DNA of 64,000 nt from Cenococcum geophilum (taxonomy: Eukaryota): the NCBI GenBank assembly GCA_050273025.1, contig CP158635.1, positions 19,964,001 to 20,028,000 on the forward strand. Direction: 5' to 3'. Both the position numbers and the translations under genes were made by a program. This document shows positions 2,494-28,191 of the stretch, piece after piece. The notes beneath the pieces are model-generated. The model worked only from the letters and a program-made list of their open reading frames with translations, searched no databases and had not been told where the DNA came from. The stretch's first letter is position 1; the number at the start of each line of letters is the position of its first letter.

Positions 2494-3755
2494 TGTGGTG
2501 GCTGGTCTATTGGGTGGTGGGGATGTGGGTGTGAACGAGCAGATGGTACAGTAAGCGGACAAATGTTATATACAGGGCGCGCGGTGACGAAAGGACGATC
2601 TCGGTGGTGAGAGACTAAAGAGCAGGAGACTTTGGGCACAGAATGTGGGGGGGTCCAAGCTTGGACTGGGCTTGTGAAAATCAAACCGGACGAGAAGGCA
2701 CATGCCAGACGACGGGCTTGCACGTCCGATATCTAGTACCTTCTCTTGATGGCGTTGCAAACCAACTTGTATTGAAAAGCTAAGACAAGCTCGGGTAAAC
2801 GGCGTACAGGTGTCTGCGCATAGGGGAGCACGAGGACGAGGGAAAGGCAGGTAGGCAGTTTCCTATCCGTCGAACAGGACAACTCATATGCGTTCTTAGG
2901 TCTCCGCGAACATGATTTAGTCTTAATTTAAATACACTGATCCTCAGCATTTAGGACTATGACTGTTAACGACCACGTTGCTGCGCTGCGGCCGCGACCT
3001 ACAATAATGAGAAACCTCATCTAGCACTTAATTAGGCATCGTAGTCTCGGCGCCGCCAAGCTCTTACCGATAACTTCGTCTCTACCTATATTGAGATATT
3101 GCATATAGGTAAGCTCTTCAGATACTACTGCAATCGGAGACTCGGTGCAGCGCCTCTTAAAGACAGCTAAAACGGTGTACACGTTTTACAAAAATTAATA
3201 AACTACTCAAACGGGCACACAGCATTAATCTCACGTCTCCATACTCGACTATTCCGCTTAGTTATACTCTATGTTTGTGTGTAGGTCCAGGGGGATGTAG
3301 GCTTTAGTTCTGTCTCTTAATTCCCGTCGACTAGCAGAATACATCCTTTTCGCGCATCTAGTGGATAACTTGCAGGAGGTTTTTCGGTAACAAGCAGCCG
3401 TTTAATGGCTTTAGCCCCGCTTCGTCCAAATCAACTCAAACTGTACAGCCGGATTTGAGATGTTCTGGCGACAGAGTGGCTGACGCTCTCTCCCGAGGTC
3501 GGAGCAAGCCAATTGCGTCGTCAGGTGCGGAATTTGTTTATTCCCTATTCCCGACGCTTTTACAAAAGCAACCTAACTCTCATTCTGCGCTATATACTTT
3601 CTCACTCCTCCAATAGAGCCCGAGTCTACTCTACCAATTGCTTTGCTCCTGCTCATGCCCATGTAGCGTGCTACTTACTAGCTTCCTGCCACTTTACAAG
3701 GACCTGTTGTTGATCCTTCCATCACACAGCGAGCATTACGTCTCATGTGTCAATC

Positions 3756-6098
3756 ATGCTTTCTCATCGTGCTTTCATCAAAAGAACTTCTTTTAAGCAA
3801 AGTTGTTTATATTTCAATAATCGTTCTTCTCATCTATTCTTCTCGTCCTCTGCAAAGTATGGCGCATACGCCGACACCATTCCCAATCTGAAGATCGGAA
3901 AGTACACACGGGTGATATATCAAGGCTTCACGGGTAAACAAGCTACGGCCAATGCCAAACAATCAATTGAGTATGGAACTCAAATAGTAGGAGGTGTAAA
4001 ACCTGGTACGACCGGGGAACATCTCGGTTTGCCTGTTTTACCGAGTGTGAAAGCAGCCAAAGAGCAATTAAACCCGGATGCTACCGCAATCTTTGTTGCT
4101 GCTCGGTATGCTGCTTCTGCAATCGAGGAGGCCATTGAGGCGGAAATTCCGTTGATTGTAGCCGTTGCGGAGCATGTTCCATTACATGATGTTATGAGAG
4201 TAAGCCATGTGTCCTAGCTAGGACAATTGGGGCAAGTCTACTGAACGGCTTTAGATCCATTCCATCCTCAGCACACAATCCAAGTCTCGCCTAGTAGGTG
4301 CTAATGCTCCTGGAATTATCTCGGCCATTGGAAGGTGTAGAATAGGCTTCCAACCATTGCCAACATTCTCTCCTGGTCATGTTGGCATTGTGGCTAAATC
4401 AGGAACACTGAGCTATGAAACCGTTGCCTCTCTCACAAGAGCTGGACTCGGTCAAAGTTTATGCATAGGGGTGGGTGGTGATGTTATTGCTGGAACCAAT
4501 TTTGTGGATGCACTCACAGTCTTCGAGACGGACGAAGATACTGAAACTATCATTTTGGTCGGTGAACTAGGCGGGACTGCGGAAGAGGAGGCTGCCGAAT
4601 GGATAAAGGTGTATAAGAAACGCGTGCCAAATCCAAAGTAAGCGTATCCTCTTCTAGGTCATTCTCATCAAACTAAACAGCAATCTAGACCCATTGCGGC
4701 TCTTGTAGCAGGTTTCCAAGCCGTCCCGGGCAGAGTGATGGGACATGCTGGAGCATGGACCGGCATCGGCGAAGGTACCTCTGAAAGCAAATACAAAGCC
4801 CTGGAGAGCGCTGGAGTAACTATGGTCGACCACCCAGCCAAGTTCGGCAACGTAATGAAAGGTCTACTATTAGGTAGTGGAAGAAGCGTGTATGAAATTG
4901 TATGTCCTGCCCCCTTACTTAAGAAATGGTTCTAAACAATCTGTAGCAAAAATCTGTAGTAAACCAACGCCGATCCTTCCACACTTCTCGCTCACGGCCT
5001 CATGTTCGACTAGCCCCAAGTCGCTCAGCTAGTATTCCTCACCGCAGCCTCCACCTCACTACAACTCAAGCTACAGACCTCCTCAAAAACTATGGCATAA
5101 CTATCTCGCCAGACCCTTCACCCACGCCCTCATCCTCCCACTTCGTCGGCATAACAGTTGACCGCTCATCCCGCAGCCCTTGCATCGTTGCCTCTCCCAC
5201 CACCTCCCCGACCCAGCTCGCTTACCGCGCACGTCGTTTCCCTTTCGATTACCGGCTGGGTCCCTCGCAAGCCACAATCCTCGCGGCGCTCGAGTACCTC
5301 CAGCTCGACGCCGCCCCTTCCAGTGCCAAAGCCTCCGCCGCCTCCCTAATCAACTCGCTCTGGTCGCTCTACCAATCCAAAGAAGCACTAACCCTGACCG
5401 TACACCTCTCCCTGTCCACCCAGCAAGACTCACTAATCCTCCACAACCCCTCCCTCACCTTCGACGACGCCGCCTTCAAATCCGCCTCCCGCCACCCGGA
5501 CATCCATTCCCTGCGCGACCTCTCCGCCATCCCCCCAGCCGAGCTCGAAGCCGAAGCCCACGGCATCGTCTACATCCCGCTCCCCTCCCCCAGCGCCGCC
5601 GCCGCGCAACCTCTTCTAATCGGCACCCTCGTCAACGGCGCCGGCCTCGCCATGAACACGTGCGACGTCCTCGCCGCGCGCCTGCACGCCTCCCCCGCCG
5701 CCAACTTCCTCGACACGGGCGGCAAGGCCACCGCGGCCACCATCGCCGCGTCGTTCAAGCTGGTCCTGGCGGATCCGCGCGTCGGGGTCGTGTTCGTCAA
5801 TATCTTTGGCGGGCTGACGCTGTGCGATATGATTGCGCGCGGTGTCGTCCTTGCGTTCAAGGAGGTTGGGGTCGACAAGCCGGTTGTGGTTAGGTTGAGG
5901 GGCACGAATGAGGAGGAGGGTGCGAGGATTTTGCAGGGGGCGGGGTTGCCGATTGGGGTGTTTGATGGGTTTGAGGAGGCAGTGGGGGAGCTGGGGAGGT
6001 TGGTTGAGGGGCAGGACGGGTGGGGGAGGGGGAGGTTGAGAGGAGGGGTGGATGAAAGTGATGTAGGTATAGGGATAGGGATAGGGAGGGGAGATTAG
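3756..6098 (+). CDS. Fused succinyl-CoA ligase alpha-like + truncated beta-like protein (~729 aa); exons 3756-4199, 4255-4637, 4689-4899, 4947-6098
   Basis: Alpha motifs QGFTGKQ, KSGTLSYE, GVGGD, GELGG, MGHAGA (phospho-His); beta motifs VDRSSR, FDDAA, GTLVNGAGLAM, NFLDTGG, NIFGG, RLRGTN. Three canonical introns keep one frame (2190 nt); N-terminus resembles a mitochondrial presequence. Confidence 0.9.
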
Positions 6099-6902
6099 GG
6101 TGAGGCGGAGGTAGAAGTAGAGGTAGAAGCGTTGAAGATAGATTTGGGTGGGAGTTGGTTATGCTAGTTATGCTAGCTATGCTAAATATAGACAGATCCT
6201 TTTACTCGCGTTTCAATTCCTAGTATACAGTTCATGCCGGTCCGCTCCCTGGACGCGCGGAAGAGGTAAAAAACAAAGACGAAGACGAAGAAAAGAAAGG
6301 GCTCTGCCGCCCGCACCCGCGTTTTTCCGCTGGGGAAGAAATGTTAGAACCGCCTGGCAAGCAGGCGCTCATCCCTCATGAAGAGAAAACACGAGTCAAA
6401 ACAGAACCCGCCTCCCACCCCTTCCTGGCTCATCCTATAAAACATAACGCCATGACCACTGCAACCCGTAGACCCGCTCCTAACGCCGCCCGCTTACGAT
6501 AAAAAAATGCAAGACTAGAAATGAGCGGAAAAAATAACTGCGTAGCTAAAGAAACCGAGAACTTCAGAATCAAAATATATAATGTGTGGCTGTCGGACGC
6601 TGGGTGGTTGGGAAAAAAGAAAAAAGAAAAAAGCGGTGTGCTGAAGAAATGAATGCTCGCTTCAAACGCTTCAGTGTTGCCGGAACAAGAAACAGAAGAA
6701 CGGAATGGAATACAATGGCATATCGAGTACTGTAACATGCTCACATACCCAGCTGTCGAGATGGTAGAACAAGCCCCTTCTTTAAAAAGCTTAAACCAAC
6801 CCCCAGGCCGTAACGCTGCCGTACCCAAGCAAACTATCTAATCAATGAGAAAGGATGATGTAGAGGGAAGAAGGGACAGCCTTAGAAAAGAGATTCTCTC
6901 CC

Positions 6903-8411
6903 TTAGAAATCCACACTCCACCGCATCCTCGGATCCCGTTCCAGCGACCGCTCCTTCCCCTGCCCATCCAGCACCTTCCCCAGTACCCTCCCCTCGCCCT
7001 TCAGCGCGCCGCCGTGCTGCACGTCGACGAGCAGCATCTCTTCGGCGCAGTCGCTCTCGGGCAGCCGGATGCGCGCCTCCATCAGCGGCGCCGACACGAA
7101 GCGCGAGTTCAGCAGCGCGTGTGGGGATACGAGGTCTTCCAGAATGTTGAGGGACGAGACGTCGGACGCGGCGAGCGGGGCGCGCGACTTCATGGCGCGC
7201 GGAATGGGGTCCGAGGAGGTGATGGTGGTCGAGCGGGAGATGCGTGCGGGTCGGCGCGGCTTGGAAGGGGATGGGTGCGCGTTTTGATCGGAGCTGCTTT
7301 GGGAGGAGGGTGAAGGGCATGCGGATTCACCGGATAGCACGGTCGAGAGCTTGTGTCTGCTGTTGCGGACACGCACGATGCGGAGGCTGGAGGTGGGAGA
7401 GGTGGTCGGCGCGGTGTGCACGATGGTGTCGCTTGATTCGCCGGAGGAATCGTCGTCGGTGGAGTCGGAGGAGATGGCTACGGGTGCGCTGCGGCGCTTT
7501 TTGCGGGATCCGCTTAGAGGGGGAAGGGTGGCTTTGGGGGTCTTGGGGTCCCGGTCGTGGCGCTGGCCTTTTGTTGCGTTCCTGTAGCAGCTGCCTCGTG
7601 ATAGGGGAGGCATTTCTGGAGTTTCGCCTCTTTCCAGTTTCACTTGCAGTTGTCTCGCGCTGACTTGGCGCTGCAAATTCAGCTCTATGCGGCTGCTGGT
7701 ACCACTTCCGCTGCGACTTCGGTCGGTGGCCCGTTCCTTCCCGTTCATGATCTTCGCTCTCGGCGGAGGTTGGAGCATCCATTTATTGTCTGCAGCATTC
7801 GGAGAAGGCATGCTGACGACGGGAGGGTGGAGATCGTTCACTGGAGGTGCGCGAGCGGTGTAGTAGCTTTCCGCAGTGGAATATGCAGTTCCTGGTCTGC
7901 TTATACCGGCGACTCCTACAGACGAACCGGTGCCATTGCTTTGAGAACCCTTCCGCGTTGTCGGATCCGGTTCCCCAAATCCCCATAGCTCTTCATCTTC
8001 TCTCTGATAACGCCGTCTATTCCAATTGTCTCCACTCAACGTATCATCTGAGGTCCGGGTTGGATCAGTAGTCTCTGGATGATTCATATCCAGACTGCTT
8101 CCTCCTCGGCTTGGACCAGTGCTGTGTGTTCCTGCCGTTGTGATACCCCTCTGGCTCCCGTTGTGTGCCTTGCGACCTGTTCTTCGCGGTGGAGGGCCTG
8201 GTCCGAGTACAATCTCTTCGGACCAGTACGGATTTGTCGCGGAGGGTTCAGGGTGACGGTATAGATCCGGTTGCTCCATTTCGAGCTGCCTCTTCTGCCC
8301 CCTATCTCTCTTTGCTTGTTTCCGCCTCTTGCTGCGGTATAAATATCCTGTACATGGTGCACAGGACACATAATGGAAGATGGCTGACTGTATTCCCCTG
8401 ATGAGAGACAT
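6903..8411 (-). CDS. Hypothetical protein, 502 aa, intronless, largely disordered
   Basis: Long ORF with motif-like blocks AIFHYVSCAPC, YRHPEPSATNPYWSEEIVLGPGPP, WNRRRYQREDEELWG, PPVNDLHPPVVS, RWSVDF*. Confidence 0.85.
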   Translation of the reverse strand: MSLIRGIQSAIFHYVSCAPCTGYLYRSKRRKQAKRDRGQKRQLEMEQPDLYRHPEPSATNPYWSEEIVLGPGPPPRRTGRKAHNGSQRGITTAGTHSTGPSRGGSSLDMNHPETTDPTRTSDDTLSGDNWNRRRYQREDEELWGFGEPDPTTRKGSQSNGTGSSVGVAGISRPGTAYSTAESYYTARAPPVNDLHPPVVSMPSPNAADNKWMLQPPPRAKIMNGKERATDRSRSGSGTSSRIELNLQRQVSARQLQVKLERGETPEMPPLSRGSCYRNATKGQRHDRDPKTPKATLPPLSGSRKKRRSAPVAISSDSTDDDSSGESSDTIVHTAPTTSPTSSLRIVRVRNSRHKLSTVLSGESACPSPSSQSSSDQNAHPSPSKPRRPARISRSTTITSSDPIPRAMKSRAPLAASDVSSLNILEDLVSPHALLNSRFVSAPLMEARIRLPESDCAEEMLLVDVQHGGALKGEGRVLGKVLDGQGKERSLERDPRMRWSVDF

Positions 8412-24473: not shown

Positions 24474-27042
24474 TCATTTCACCAACCTATCCCCCTCGCC
24501 TTCGTCATCGCTTTCCTCACTCTCAGTCTCCTCTTCCTCCTCCGTACTTTCCTCCTCCTCTTCGGTCTCCTCTTCGGTTTCCTCGCTCTCTTCTTTATCC
24601 TCTGCCAGCCAATCATCCAACGACCTTTCCTTGATGCCATTCGTATTTTTCGGGGCAAGGCCCGTATCTACAACCCTGCCAACACCAATTGCGCTGTCCA
24701 ACTTCTCACTTGCCGTCTCCCTCCGACCTGGCTCGTACTCCTTGCCAGGGCCTCCAGCCTCGTCTCTCAACCGTGAATCAGGCTCCTTCCCTTCTTCCAC
24801 CCACGGCGGTAGATCCTCGTATCCTCTGAGTCCGCCCACACCACCTTCATCCCCGACGACCAGACTCGCGCTTCCGAGCGTATAGCCCTTGCGAGTTTCG
24901 CTGGGGCTTGGCGTCTGCGGAACAGGTTTCGGTGCGAGGAGAAGGAGAGAGGCCAGCTGGGTGGATGAAGGGGTGGCGAGCAGCGCACGGTAGACGCGGG
25001 CGCGATCTCTAAGATCGTAGGAGGTGTCATAGCGGGTGAGAAGCAAGACATAGTGATAGAGTGCTTGTATCGGATGCGGTTTCTCCGCTTCCTTATGCCC
25101 TTGGTGCGGGACTTCCTTCGCCAGCTCCGTGTCCCTGAATCCACCCTCCTCCTCAAACCCAGATAGCAGCGATGCCGCGTCCTGAGGCTGCGATGTCTGA
25201 GGCACGGGGTCTGGAGGCGGATTCGCGTTCAAGTAATGCACATACACTTTCGCGGCCAGCAGCACAATCTGCAGTTTGGCCGCCTCCGCCTCGTCACTAA
25301 ACCCCTTGACCAGAATGCGCAGCACGTCGGCAGCGATGTTGTTCTCCGGGTCCAGTCCCGCGAACTCGCCGACCAGCCATATGATGCTGGCGCGGGCCTG
25401 CGCGCTGGTCGCCGCGTCCAGATGTTTCGCCAGCCGCACGACGGTGGTGCGGTGCGCGCCGGGATCCCGCTGGATCAGGTGCCGGATGACCTCGAGGCTC
25501 TCGGCGACGAGATGCGCGTCCGCGCTGCCGATGTGCGCGAGCAGCAGGCGCAGGCAGCGCGCCGAGGTGCGCGGGCTCGTCGCGCTGCTCTGCGCGCAGC
25601 GGCCGATGGCCCGCACGGCTTCGCGCACCAGGCCCGGGTCCTGCGACCCGCTGCGCGAGAAGTGCGACAGCTCGGCTAGGATCAGGCTCTGCAGCCGCGC
25701 CGGCGCGTGCGGGAAGATCAGGGTGAGTAGCTCCAGCTTCAGGCGCCAGATGTGCGGTGCGTCGGTGCTGCGCACCAGGAAGTGCGTGTAGTGCGCGGCG
25801 AAGGGCTCGGGCCGCGCCAGACACACCTGCACGATGTTGTAGAGCGCAATGTGCTGGATGTCGGTTCCGGAGCGTAGCAAGGAGATTAATGGCCCGATAG
25901 CGCTGTCGAGGTAGGTCGAGTTCCCGAGGTAGAGGTAGCAGCGGACGACGGCGATGACGACGGCGGAGTTGCGCGATTGCAGGAGGGGCGTGCATGATTT
26001 GAGGAGGAGGTCGAGATCTGGGTCTAGGAGGACGATTTCCTCGGTAGTGTGGGAGGGGTTGTCGTCATCTGAAGAGCCGTCCGAGTCGTAGAATCCTTTG
26101 GTAGTTTTTGTAGTGGCAGTATCATTAGTATTCGAACTACTTTTCTTAACACGCCTTGTCCGCCGTGGGAAGCATTTCCGTGCATATATCATCATGAGTC
26201 GCAATGTGGCCAGCTGACCCCATTCGTCCATGTCTACTAGCTTGCGGATGAGACTGCGATAGTGGGGGTGTATTAGATCCATCCGTTCTGGGCAGACTTC
26301 CAGAAAGGCGGCGACGGCCGCGCCGGCCACGAAGTACTGCTTGTCTCCCAGCAGTGTTGAGAGGTACTCCAGAAGCTGCGGCAGCGTTGTAGGGTCCAGG
26401 GAGTAGCATTTCGGTATAGCCAACGCCGCTGCTCGCCGTACATACGGACTCATATCGCCTGCTCCACGCTTGATACCTAGGGACACGATCTGGCTAATGA
26501 CGGGGACACGGATGCCCGACATTACACGAAGCGCTAGCGCCCGCAGCTGGGGGTTCGAGTCTGTGAGAGACTTCTGGATCGTGTTGATGGACAGCAGCGC
26601 CGTATCCGGCTCCGCTTCGGCATGGTGGAGTAGGTATATGTAGACGAGCTTCTTTATTTCAAGGGAAGGCGATGCGATATTTTTGATTACGGAGCTGAAG
26701 TAGGGAAGGGTGGGTTGGTTGCGGTGGGTCATCTACACAATAATATAAGTTAGCATTAGACTTTATGCCGGATAGCGGAGGGGTGGTCATACAGTGATGA
26801 CTTTCCGCAGACCTTCAAGCACGTCGCGGTCGGAACGGCTGTCGAGCAGCTTCTTGAGTTGGGCGGCAGGGAGCACGCGAGTCGACGTCTTGCGGATGTA
26901 ACTGGCATCGCGTGCAGCTTCGAGGGTGAGGTCTCGAGCTGCGGGAGTAAATTGGGCGTAAGTTGCTGGATGCATGACGAGGGGTGATGGTGTAGAGTGT
27001 ACCTGTTTCCAGCATGCTAGAGATGCGGGATATAGACTCCAT
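24474..27042 (-). CDS. APL6: AP-3 adaptor complex beta subunit, 2 introns near the 5' end
   Basis: MESISRISSMLET ARDLTLEAA; FSSVIKNIASPSLEIKKLVYIYL; DTALLSINTIQKSL.D.NP..RALALRVMSGIRVPVI; RYDTSYDLRDRAR; acidic C-terminus. Confidence 0.95.
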
Positions 27043-27375
27043 TTCTCCGCCTTTCCTCTCGGAGGAGTTGAGACGTATGAGCGTTGTTGGTTGCAGTTTT
27101 TTCGGGAGAACGGGTGGGGGTGACGTTGAGGTCGTTGCGTGGGATGGCTCAAGCTGTTTCTCCTCGACTCCACAACACAATTCCGCTATGGGTTGAAAAA
27201 CAAAGCGAGGCGGCATCTGTCGATATACGGTGCTCTCTATAGCTTTCTAAATCTACGGAGACACCACCACACTCTACTATTTCAAATATGTCCAGCACAC
27301 GACCAGACTCAACCCCACCACACAGCTCCATACTCTAGAGCAATCCAACAACACAACTTCCTCCTCCCTCCTCCA

Positions 27376-28191
27376 ATGGACCCAGCTACACCGCGCAAGC
27401 CCTCCCTCACTCCCACCGTCCTCCACCCGCTCAGCCTCCCCGGCTTCCTCACCCACCTCGTCTCGCAGCCCTCGCCGCCCCAAACCATCATCATAGTCTG
27501 CACCTCGCGCTCCGCCTTCCTCGCCGACCTCCTCACCTCCCTCACTCCGACACCCCAATCAAACACCGAAGACCAAGACCAAGCAGCCCAGCCCCTCCTC
27601 CCCCCAACCCTCCGCACCCTCCTCGCCTCCCAGCGCATCCGCCTCGCCTTCTGCGCCTCCGTCCCCGCCCTGCACGCCTATCTGGCCGCATACAGCGGGC
27701 CGGCCAGGGAACCAGGCGCTGGAGCCGATATGGCGCGGAAGGAGAGCGAGGACGAGGAGGAGCAGCATCCGGTGCTGGTGCTGCTGAATCCGCTCGCGCT
27801 GCTTGCGCCGACGCCGGCGTTCTCGGCGCAGGGGCTCGGGAGGCTGGTCGCGGCGGGGGTGGAGGCGGCGGGGAGGGCGGGCGCGAGACTGCTGGTTGTG
27901 GAGTGTGTGGGGGCGGGTGCTGGAAGGGGGCGGAGAGGGGTGGTGGGGGAGGGGGAGGATGTTGATATGGAGCTGGGATTGGACGAGGAGGATGCTGGGG
28001 ATGGGGAAGGGGTGGAAGGGCGATCGGATTCGAGGGAGGAGGATCCATGGGAGCAGGATATTCCTATTCTGAATGTGTCGGTGAGGAGATTTGGGTCGGG
28101 CGGTGGGGAAAGGGGATGGGCGGGACGGACGGTTAAGGCGAGGAGGGTGATGGAAAGGTGGTGCCGGTTCTCTTCTTTGGAGGGTTATTGA
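27376..28191 (+). CDS. Hypothetical protein (~271 aa), possibly a degenerate RecA-fold (Shu complex / Rad51-paralog-like) protein
   Basis: ORF from ATG 27376 with alternating beta/alpha pattern TIIIVCTSRSAFL, IRLAFCASVPALHAYL, VLVLLNPLAL, FSAQGLGR, LLVVEC, WEQDIPILN, WAGRTV. The function call is inference. Confidence 0.75.
   Translation: MDPATPRKPSLTPTVLHPLSLPGFLTHLVSQPSPPQTIIIVCTSRSAFLADLLTSLTPTPQSNTEDQDQAAQPLLPPTLRTLLASQRIRLAFCASVPALHAYLAAYSGPAREPGAGADMARKESEDEEEQHPVLVLLNPLALLAPTPAFSAQGLGRLVAAGVEAAGRAGARLLVVECVGAGAGRGRRGVVGEGEDVDMELGLDEEDAGDGEGVEGRSDSREEDPWEQDIPILNVSVRRFGSGGGERGWAGRTVKARRVMERWCRFSSLEGY

Follow-up and report, generated by a model that had tools for sequence, protein, structure and literature searches.

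The stretch analysed here, called the window, comprises 64,000 nucleotides (nt) of Cenococcum geophilum DNA (assembly GCA_050273025.1, contig CP158635.1, positions 19,964,001 to 20,028,000 of the forward strand). At 3756-6098 on the + strand it contains a gene whose product joins two halves that resemble the alpha and the beta subunit of succinyl-CoA synthetase (SCS). Four exons, read directly and from the list of open reading frames (ORFs), give a single frame of 729 amino acids (aa), to which they contribute 148, 128, 70 and 383 aa (Table 1). The frame and its domains bear out an earlier note on this DNA, which had described one gene for an alpha-like and then a beta-like half, and relatives carry the fusion as continuous ORFs. 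The note had also counted three canonical introns within one frame of about 729 aa. This stands, except that intron 2 occupies 4638-4688 and not 4639-4689, a shift that leaves the protein unchanged. Its wider idea was that of a polyprotein, in which the linker between the halves would be a second mitochondrial presequence that the mitochondrial processing peptidase (MPP) cuts. This hypothesis is partly supported by the present sequence analysis. What is new relative to that first reading is the loss of ATP-grasp sequence from the beta half, together with two arginine motifs that are near-invariant in alignments of the linker.

Table 1. Features of the fused gene, in positions of the window.
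Feature	Position	Strand	Description
Exon 1	3756..4199	+	ATG at 3756; presequence-like N-terminus, about aa 1-35 (nt 3756-3860); CoA-binding domain
Intron 1	4200..4254	+	55 nt, GT..AG; 10 spliced X19 reads join 4199 to 4255
Exon 2	4255..4637	+	Ligase_CoA domain of the alpha subunit, Pfam 60.9 bits
Intron 2	4638..4688	+	51 nt, GT..AG; 15 spliced X19 reads join 4637 to 4689
Exon 3	4689..4899	+	Phosphohistidine loop MGHAGAW (His295 codon 4744-4746) and alpha C-terminal helices, by direct reading
Intron 3	4900..4946	+	47 nt, GTATGT..CTGTAG; sits between the alpha and beta halves; splicing predicted from sequence
Exon 4	4947..6098	+	Linker, truncated ATP-grasp remnant, beta C-terminal Ligase_CoA, tail; stop 6096-6098
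Linker motif 1	4965..4985	+	Q-R-R-S-F-H-T, aa 353-359; candidate cleavage or recognition site
Spacer	4986..5039	+	aa 360-377; variable, basic, acid-free
Linker motif 2	5040..5057	+	H-R-S-L-H-L, aa 378-383; aligns with presequence end and mature start of stand-alone beta
ATP-grasp remnant	5049..5627	+	Counterpart of about residues 21-107 of canonical beta absent (MAFFT)
Beta C-terminal Ligase_CoA	5628..5954	+	Pfam; aligned with E. coli SucC residues 177-387
C-terminal tail	6003..6095	+	31 aa, Gly/Arg-rich; absent from orthologues (alignment); in the G-rich end of a GC island

The first two introns are seen spliced in X19, a set of RNA reads from a close relative (516 of the 526 placed reads are 95-99% alike to the window, under a 95% likeness limit). 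All three introns carry CT(A/G)AAC 8-10 nt ahead of the 3' AG. In intron 3 this element reads CTAAAC and stands 9 nt ahead of the AG, as in the read-confirmed intron 2. Splicing of intron 3 gives a frame that is colinear with two related proteins, P0001 and P0002. As the earlier note had stated, exon 4 can be translated solely through the splice, because an in-frame TAG (4944-4946) precedes it and its first Met codon comes at 5652. The ORF of P0001, found on Logan contigs no longer than 3772 nt, extends over 727 aa without interruption. It shares 89% identity with exon 4 and is continuous over all three junction positions. The junction is intron-free in other fungi, where ORFs were called without splicing on metagenome contigs. 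P0123, P0124 (from a cluster of 106 members), P0126, P0130 and P0132 are such unspliced ORFs, and each reads on from the C-terminus of alpha, across the linker, into the beta half. Furthermore, 14 sequencing runs (11 recorded as RNA and three RNA by guess) each contain 0.90 of the words sampled over 3650-6250. By our own arithmetic, the expected share is 0.905 if all three introns are removed and 0.935 if intron 3 is retained. The observed value gives weak support to the removal of all three. A fourth intron near 6003, which the C-terminus of P0001 had brought to mind, was set aside because the 0.90 word share fits three introns only.

The gene model would be wrong if intron 3 were mostly retained, leaving a 357-aa alpha-like protein only, or if the beta frame were a decaying remnant. 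The exon 3/4 junction is unseen in the X19 reads, whose depth is 0.31 over 4791-4897 and 0 over 4898-5004. Retention would also end the alpha frame cleanly, at a TAA (4933-4935) 11 codons on. The reads of a further set, X7, consist of two pieces, both upstream of the gene (3400-3621). However, the beta half is 45-89% identical over hundreds of species, its frame has no start codon of its own, and the ORFs of relatives, including that of P0001 across the junction, are continuous. Substitutions point the same way. Among 40 listed differences between the X19 relative and the window, 24 are synonymous and 16 are not (a further 25 differences lie beyond those listed), and synonymous changes account for 9 of the 15 that fall in the alpha half and for 15 of the 25 in the beta half. 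A wrong gene model is hardly credible in our view, and we have very little doubt that the locus is a real, expressed, single fused gene.

Several details of the X19 reads and of related ORFs within this gene deserve mention. The X19 depth is about 10x over the alpha exons, 35-138x over 5005-5646 (the peak of 138x falls within 5112-5646) and 9-18x over 5647-5967. Reading these differences as expression was rejected, since nearly all reads sit at the 95% likeness limit and the filter may be their cause. Four X19 reads omit 47 nt, at 5399-5447 inside exon 4, with GT..AA ends. The omission shifts the frame and may be a rare variant or an artefact. At 5611-5613, both the X19 relative and P0001 have an extra low-complexity insert of about 20 aa that is rich in Pro, Ala and Thr. 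The insert of P0001 agrees with loose ends of X19 reads at 5611, and P0002, from Glonium stellatum, carries different inserts in the same loop. P0129, an ENA contig from another relative, has an ATG inside intron 3 that is in frame with exon 4 and meets no stop. In the window this frame ends at the TAG of the intron (region 4926-4946), and the start in P0129 is probably an artefact of ORF calling.

In the alpha-like half, the Pfam domain CoA_binding (PF02629) matches exon 1 with 75.4 bits against a cut-off of 22.3. All 33 aligned proteins share residues G294, H295, G297 and A298 of the phosphohistidine loop, G-H-A-G-A. The alpha half of P0001, used as a stand-in, falls just below the curated equivalog or subfamily cut-offs of two NCBIfam models (TIGR01019, 313 versus 353.2; NF004230, 310.9 versus 336), with a full-length match. 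An AlphaFold2 model of P0001, computed from this protein and 33 aligned family members, has a mean predicted local distance difference test score (pLDDT) of 82 and a predicted template modelling score (pTM) of 0.82. Foldseek places the alpha half on the SCS alpha subunits of human, pig and E. coli, with 46-47% identity (47% for SUCLG1) and a template modelling (TM) score of 0.95.

The beta-like half keeps the C-terminal Ligase_CoA domain, which Pfam finds at exon 4 residues 228-336 with 76.2 bits. ATP-grasp_2 (PF08442) has no Pfam match in the window and is found in none of the best 120 of 551 family matches. When aligned with canonical beta subunits by MAFFT, the first 20 or so residues match, about 75-85 residues are skipped, and the alignment resumes near residue 107. 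The skipped segment includes V-V-K-x-Q...G-G-R-G-K-G and the strands that follow. The NCBIfam beta models match from profile position 108 only (108-385), and PDB chains match from about residue 113. With NF001913, the beta half of the window scores 185.6 bits against a cut-off of 370, while a stand-alone fungal beta subunit, P0199, scores 449.7 as a control. In what remains, E-I-N-P-L has become T-V-H-L-S, and the Asp of the next strand has become Asn. In E. coli SucC, these positions probably hold the catalytic Glu and ligands of Mg. Foldseek finds SCS beta at 28-30% identity and a TM score of about 0.63, with about 0.63 of the target covered. Since some 75-85 ATP-grasp residues are gone and the score lies far under the beta cut-offs, the beta half is unlikely to bind nucleotide, and we predict with good confidence that this function has been lost. 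The gene product would then be no normal SCS, as it would combine an alpha-like half with a beta-like half that lacks the nucleotide site. On this point the earlier note, which had spoken of stoichiometric alpha and beta of an SCS paralog, does not hold. With the nucleotide-binding part of ATP-grasp absent, the beta half does not qualify as a competent SCS beta.

Many genomes besides that of C. geophilum carry the fusion. When longer proteins were searched with exon 4, 551 matches were obtained. The best 120 are all 674-1548 aa long (about 700 aa is typical) and contain CoA_binding and Ligase_CoA. Nearly all of these 120 come from Dothideomycetes, with Glonium stellatum as the top named match, and the others are Mycena, Chrysothrix and two Quercus suber entries. 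In a second search, with a Nemania serpens member as the query, Xylariales, Sordariales and many Leotiomycetes were among the matches listed. Orthologues of about 700 aa span Dothideomycetes, Sordariomycetes and Leotiomycetes, and occur in Mycena. Aureobasidium pullulans is among the carriers, with P0083. The ESM Atlas holds family clusters of 335 and 105 members. Database names are automatic, in the form 'succinyl-CoA ligase(-like) subunit alpha'. In the open-access literature searched, no paper on the fused family was found and 'succinyl-CoA ligase-like' was absent as a term. The fusion is a large, automatically annotated and uncharacterised fungal family.

A midpoint-rooted tree of 26 hand-picked rows unites the fused beta halves in one clade, with a support of 100/100 and on a long branch of 0.94. 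The fusion occurs alongside a separate beta gene with intact ATP-grasp in Rhizodiscina lignyota (P0058 and P0199) and in Paraphaeosphaeria sporulosa (P0030 and P0304). It may be, though, that the group of P0199 is a paralogue and not the housekeeping LSC2. Four Mycena proteins (P0096, P0112, P0120 and P0152) place Basidiomycota inside an otherwise ascomycete family. Three of them, P0096, P0120 and P0152, were included in this small tree and group together within the fused clade.

Two sets of proteins were used to examine the linker. The first set consists of 121 aligned proteins, namely the window protein and the best 120 of the 551 matches. The second set consists of 100 proteins of at least 600 aa from the Nemania serpens search, in which 20 of the 120 listed were shorter and were dropped. 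The family consensus is a pair of motifs, Q-R-R-x-Φ-H-T and Q-x-R-x-[LI]-[HY]-L, that flank a spacer of about 27 aa. In motif 1 of the first set, Q353 is kept in 104/121, R355 in 117/121, Y or F at 357 in 106/121, H358 in 115/121 and T359 in 110/121. The second set has R355 in all 100, one of I, M, L, V, F or Y at 357 in 99, H358 in 97 and T359 in 96. Motif 2 is conserved to a similar degree, with R379 in 112/121, L381 in 116/121 and H382 in 96/121 of the first set, and with Q377 in 95/100 and R379 in 100/100 of the second.

The composition of the linker resembles that of a presequence. Direct reading agrees with the earlier count of seven Arg and no Asp or Glu in the first 43 residues of exon 4. 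Given 10.5% Asp+Glu in the remaining protein, 43 acid-free residues have a chance probability of about 0.009, and the acid-free character recurs in orthologues. Spacers were counted from R355 to the residue before L381. In the first set (n=100, as the count omits 21 of the 121, five of them gene models without the motif and 16 missed by the motif 2 pattern), the median length is 27 aa, Asp+Glu is 1.2% compared with 10.5% elsewhere, and Arg+Lys is 21.6% compared with 10.2%. The corresponding values in the second set are 1.8% Asp+Glu and 23.6% Arg+Lys. Entirely acid-free spacers number 72/100 in the first set and 63/100 in the second. An acid-free window of 25 aa with at least five Arg or Lys is found in the linker of 95/121 proteins and at the N-terminus of 93/121, against 45-58/121 for basic patches in folded domains. 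In the P0001 model, pLDDT falls below 50 only at residues 1-35 and 354-379. By composition, orthologue linkers in both sets keep their presequence character, the point on which the earlier note had staked its proposal. The linker has very probably been kept under selection for this character.

We compared the linker with true N-terminal extensions. The N-terminal region of the fused proteins has 1.7% Asp+Glu and 16.9% Arg+Lys, and its residues 1-35 are disordered in the AlphaFold2 model; composition and disorder serve here as proxies for a presequence. For stand-alone proteins, 120 fungal beta subunits were matched with P0199, and those counted were the 42 that begin with Met and carry 8 or more residues ahead of x-H-E-Y. 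The remaining 78, which are fragments or models that lack this kind of extension, were left out. The 42 extensions have a median length of 25 aa, with 1.1% Asp+Glu and 21.3% Arg+Lys. Their ends read R-x-L-[ST]-[LI]-H-E-Y, and all of the 12 commonest forms (30/42) start with that Arg. In the MAFFT alignment, R379-x-L381 of the fused proteins falls on the R-x-L of the stand-alone R-x-L-S-I-H-E-Y. Because composition and the R-x-L alignment agree, the length, charge and register of the linker's second half correspond to those of a beta presequence. The earlier note was right that the linker terminates where a mature beta subunit starts, with R-x-L followed by the mature N-terminus as in stand-alone mitochondrial betas.

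These features suggest the following mechanism. The gene would specify a precursor bound for mitochondria, with an SCS alpha-like half first and a beta-like half after it. The alpha-like half would retain its CoA-binding domain and phosphohistidine loop. The beta-like half would retain the C-terminal domain that forms the acyl/CoA site with alpha, the nucleotide-binding part of ATP-grasp having gone. The linker would be a presequence with the length, charge and end-point of stand-alone fungal beta presequences, to which a family-specific motif is added at the start. The N-terminal presequence would drive import into mitochondria. MPP would then cut before L381 in R379-x-L381, and perhaps also before Φ357 in R355-x-Φ357, which would excise a spacer of about 25 aa. 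PMC8734313 describes composite precursors in which MPP cuts at an internal segment that resembles a presequence and bears an R-2 motif. Cleavage would yield equimolar alpha-like and beta-like chains, which may assemble like the alpha-beta pair of SCS. Because the nucleotide site is absent, the enzyme would probably perform only 'site I' chemistry, acyl-CoA + phosphate ↔ acyl-phosphate ↔ phospho-His + acid. We speculate that its activity is other than that of a ligase forming nucleoside diphosphate, for example that of a phosphate-dependent CoA-transferase or a thioesterase. We give this explanation as a whole (an expressed fused gene, a selected presequence linker, cleavage by MPP and no nucleotide site) about an even chance of being correct, and regard it as the best available. 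The predicted internal cleavage at the linker, taken by itself, is likewise evenly balanced. A bolder version holds that a clade of filamentous fungi imports the polyprotein, that MPP cuts at both Arg motifs and the spacer is discarded, and that the product is a nucleotide-free SCS-derived enzyme with a reaction not yet described for the superfamily, such as phosphate-dependent CoA transfer between organic acids. We consider this version unlikely as it stands.

The fusion may instead stay uncut, like ATP-citrate lyase. The linker would then be a flexible tether, and its presequence character would be kept for Tom70-aided import. This fits the AlphaFold2 model, in which a single chain folds as an SCS-like alpha-beta body with a disordered linker of 26 residues. 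In addition, internal presequence-like segments can assist the import of long precursors without being cleaved, as part of PMC5881500 reports. A tether or a Tom70 site, however, requires charge and not a fixed Arg register. In this family, Arg stands two residues before the L or I that starts the beta fold in 112/121 and 100/100 proteins, the same position as in stand-alone beta presequences. Moreover, for the composite precursors listed in the relevant part of PMC8734313, MPP sites are predicted at every junction. An uncut chain is possible, if somewhat doubtful.

Motif 1 raises a further question. Q-R-R-x-Φ-H-T could be a functional or control element, such as a docking peptide, a site of phosphorylation or a flexible arm bearing a phospho-acceptor His, and not a protease site. 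This would be compatible with either a cut or an uncut chain. H358 and T359 are near-invariant (115 and 110 of 121; 97 and 96 of 100) within a segment that is otherwise variable and disordered, and R-x-[FY]-H-[TAS] occurs in 0 of the 42 stand-alone beta presequences. On the other hand, AlphaFold2 docks the motif nowhere (pLDDT 32-42), and R-2 and R-3 cleavage patterns would also accommodate R-x-Φ with a small or polar residue after it. P0207, another stand-alone beta with a full ATP-grasp domain, even has R-S-F-H-A within its N-terminal extension. A purely functional element is improbable on this evidence. Cleavage by Oct1 was also considered for motif 1. The R-10/Oct1 octapeptide pattern has Ser or Thr at -5, and it was dropped because this position is Ser or Thr in only 66/121 proteins, and Ala, Met or Ile predominate there in the second set.

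Several observations weigh against the cleaved, nucleotide-free precursor, beyond the uncovered exon 3/4 junction. Cleavage and mitochondrial location are both predictions from sequence. AlphaFold2 builds the whole P0001 chain as one body, so cleavage is not structurally required. The maximal hydrophobic moment does not discriminate, since random 27-aa segments already reach 0.48, compared with 0.54 in the spacer and 0.60 at the N-terminus. In the N-terminal region, the strict pattern R-x-Φ-[SAHT]-[STCA] is present in only 39/121 proteins, and for this reason we make no claim about a cleavage site there. The H-T of motif 1, often followed by R-R-P, is 96-100% conserved. This exceeds the conservation usual for MPP sites and hints at another or an additional role of the motif; neither cleavage nor an uncut chain accounts for it. 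PF08442 is among the precomputed domains of 5 of the 120 listed matches of the Nemania serpens search, and ATP-grasp loss may be less complete in some Leotiomycetes. Finally, the tree does not settle where the fused clade belongs relative to mitochondrial and bacterial beta subunits, and neither the donor nor the order of events can be read from it. The descent of the linker from a beta presequence is therefore argued here from alignment and composition only.

Known systems share parts of this arrangement. Mitochondrial SCS (SUCLG1 with SUCLA2 or SUCLG2; Lsc1 and Lsc2 in yeast) has the same alpha fold, phosphohistidine loop, beta C-terminal domain and overall alpha-beta body. The fused gene differs from it in being one gene in the order alpha to beta, in the deletion of about 75-85 ATP-grasp residues, and in having both halves under the NCBIfam cut-offs. 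ATP-citrate lyase also combines SCS-type alpha and beta modules in one chain. In that enzyme, beta precedes alpha, ATP-grasp is intact, and citrate-binding and citrate-synthase-like domains are present. In the fused family the order is alpha to beta and ATP-grasp is defective, and the ATP-citrate lyase domains PF16114 and PF00285 were found neither in the window nor in the best 120 of the 551 matches. Bacterial fused SCS-like proteins of about 700 aa, from two Thermodesulfobacteriota clusters, resemble the fungal family in length and in CoA_binding plus Ligase_CoA (feature scores of 0.88-0.89, which are a lead only). They differ in that ATP-grasp_2 is present in 95% of the members of one of the two clusters, and in having no mitochondrial signals. 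Composite precursors cut by MPP (Arg5,6, Atp25, Etp1 and Rsm22-Cox11), as far as passages of PMC8734313 describe them, likewise contain two linked polypeptides in one precursor, with a presequence-like junction and Arg at -2 of the candidate site. The SCS-like halves would form one enzyme, whereas the composite precursors contain two consecutive ones, and cleavage is only predicted here. PMC8734313 sets out the composite precursors of which its authors knew, and the word 'succinyl' is absent from its main text. In that study, Arg5,6 was imported into isolated yeast mitochondria.

Stand-alone beta-like proteins without a GGRGKG-type loop are found in Aspergillus sclerotioniger (P0177), Ophiocordyceps (P0187), Fusarium (P0245) and Thelonectria (P0291). 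They resemble the fused beta half in being beta-like, in lacking this loop and in an N-terminal R-x-L-type presequence. They differ in being unfused and in their position in the tree, where they group with the intact fungal beta P0199 (98/96) apart from the fused clade. This grouping indicates a second, independent decay of ATP-grasp. Other beta subunits are fused to short-chain dehydrogenase domains (PF00106 and PF13561), as in P0329, P0333 and P0381 of Ilyonectria and Colletotrichum.

Around the gene, the window contains GC-rich islands of 0.7-1 kb with at least 60% GC, compared with 47.3% overall, at 1701-2500, 5101-6100, 6901-7600 and 27301-28100, and a weaker one at 24701-26000. In each island, the GC skew of the + strand runs from about -0.6 to about +0.7, regardless of the strand of the underlying ORF. 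Near 5750 in exon 4, C at third codon positions gives way to G, and the odd Gly/Arg tail falls within the G-rich end. Neighbouring ORFs comprise a SUMO-like ORF and low-complexity proteins, with no metabolic cluster among them that would hint at a substrate. The SUMO-like ORF is 340-687 on the + strand, and its translation presumably represents a relative of SUMO/Smt3, going by recognition of the sequence.

The family carries a name, 'succinyl-CoA ligase subunit alpha', that conceals the beta-like half and claims too much for the function. An SCS-type protein with a CoA/acyl site and a catalytic His but no nucleotide site is unexplained, and it could signal new chemistry in a textbook superfamily. 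If the predicted cleavage is true, the family would be a widespread addition to the short list of mitochondrial polyproteins, found in hundreds of species across three classes of filamentous ascomycetes and in Mycena. Its internal signal can be aligned with the partner's own presequence. In that case, it would illustrate how an existing import signal can be turned into a processing site when genes fuse.

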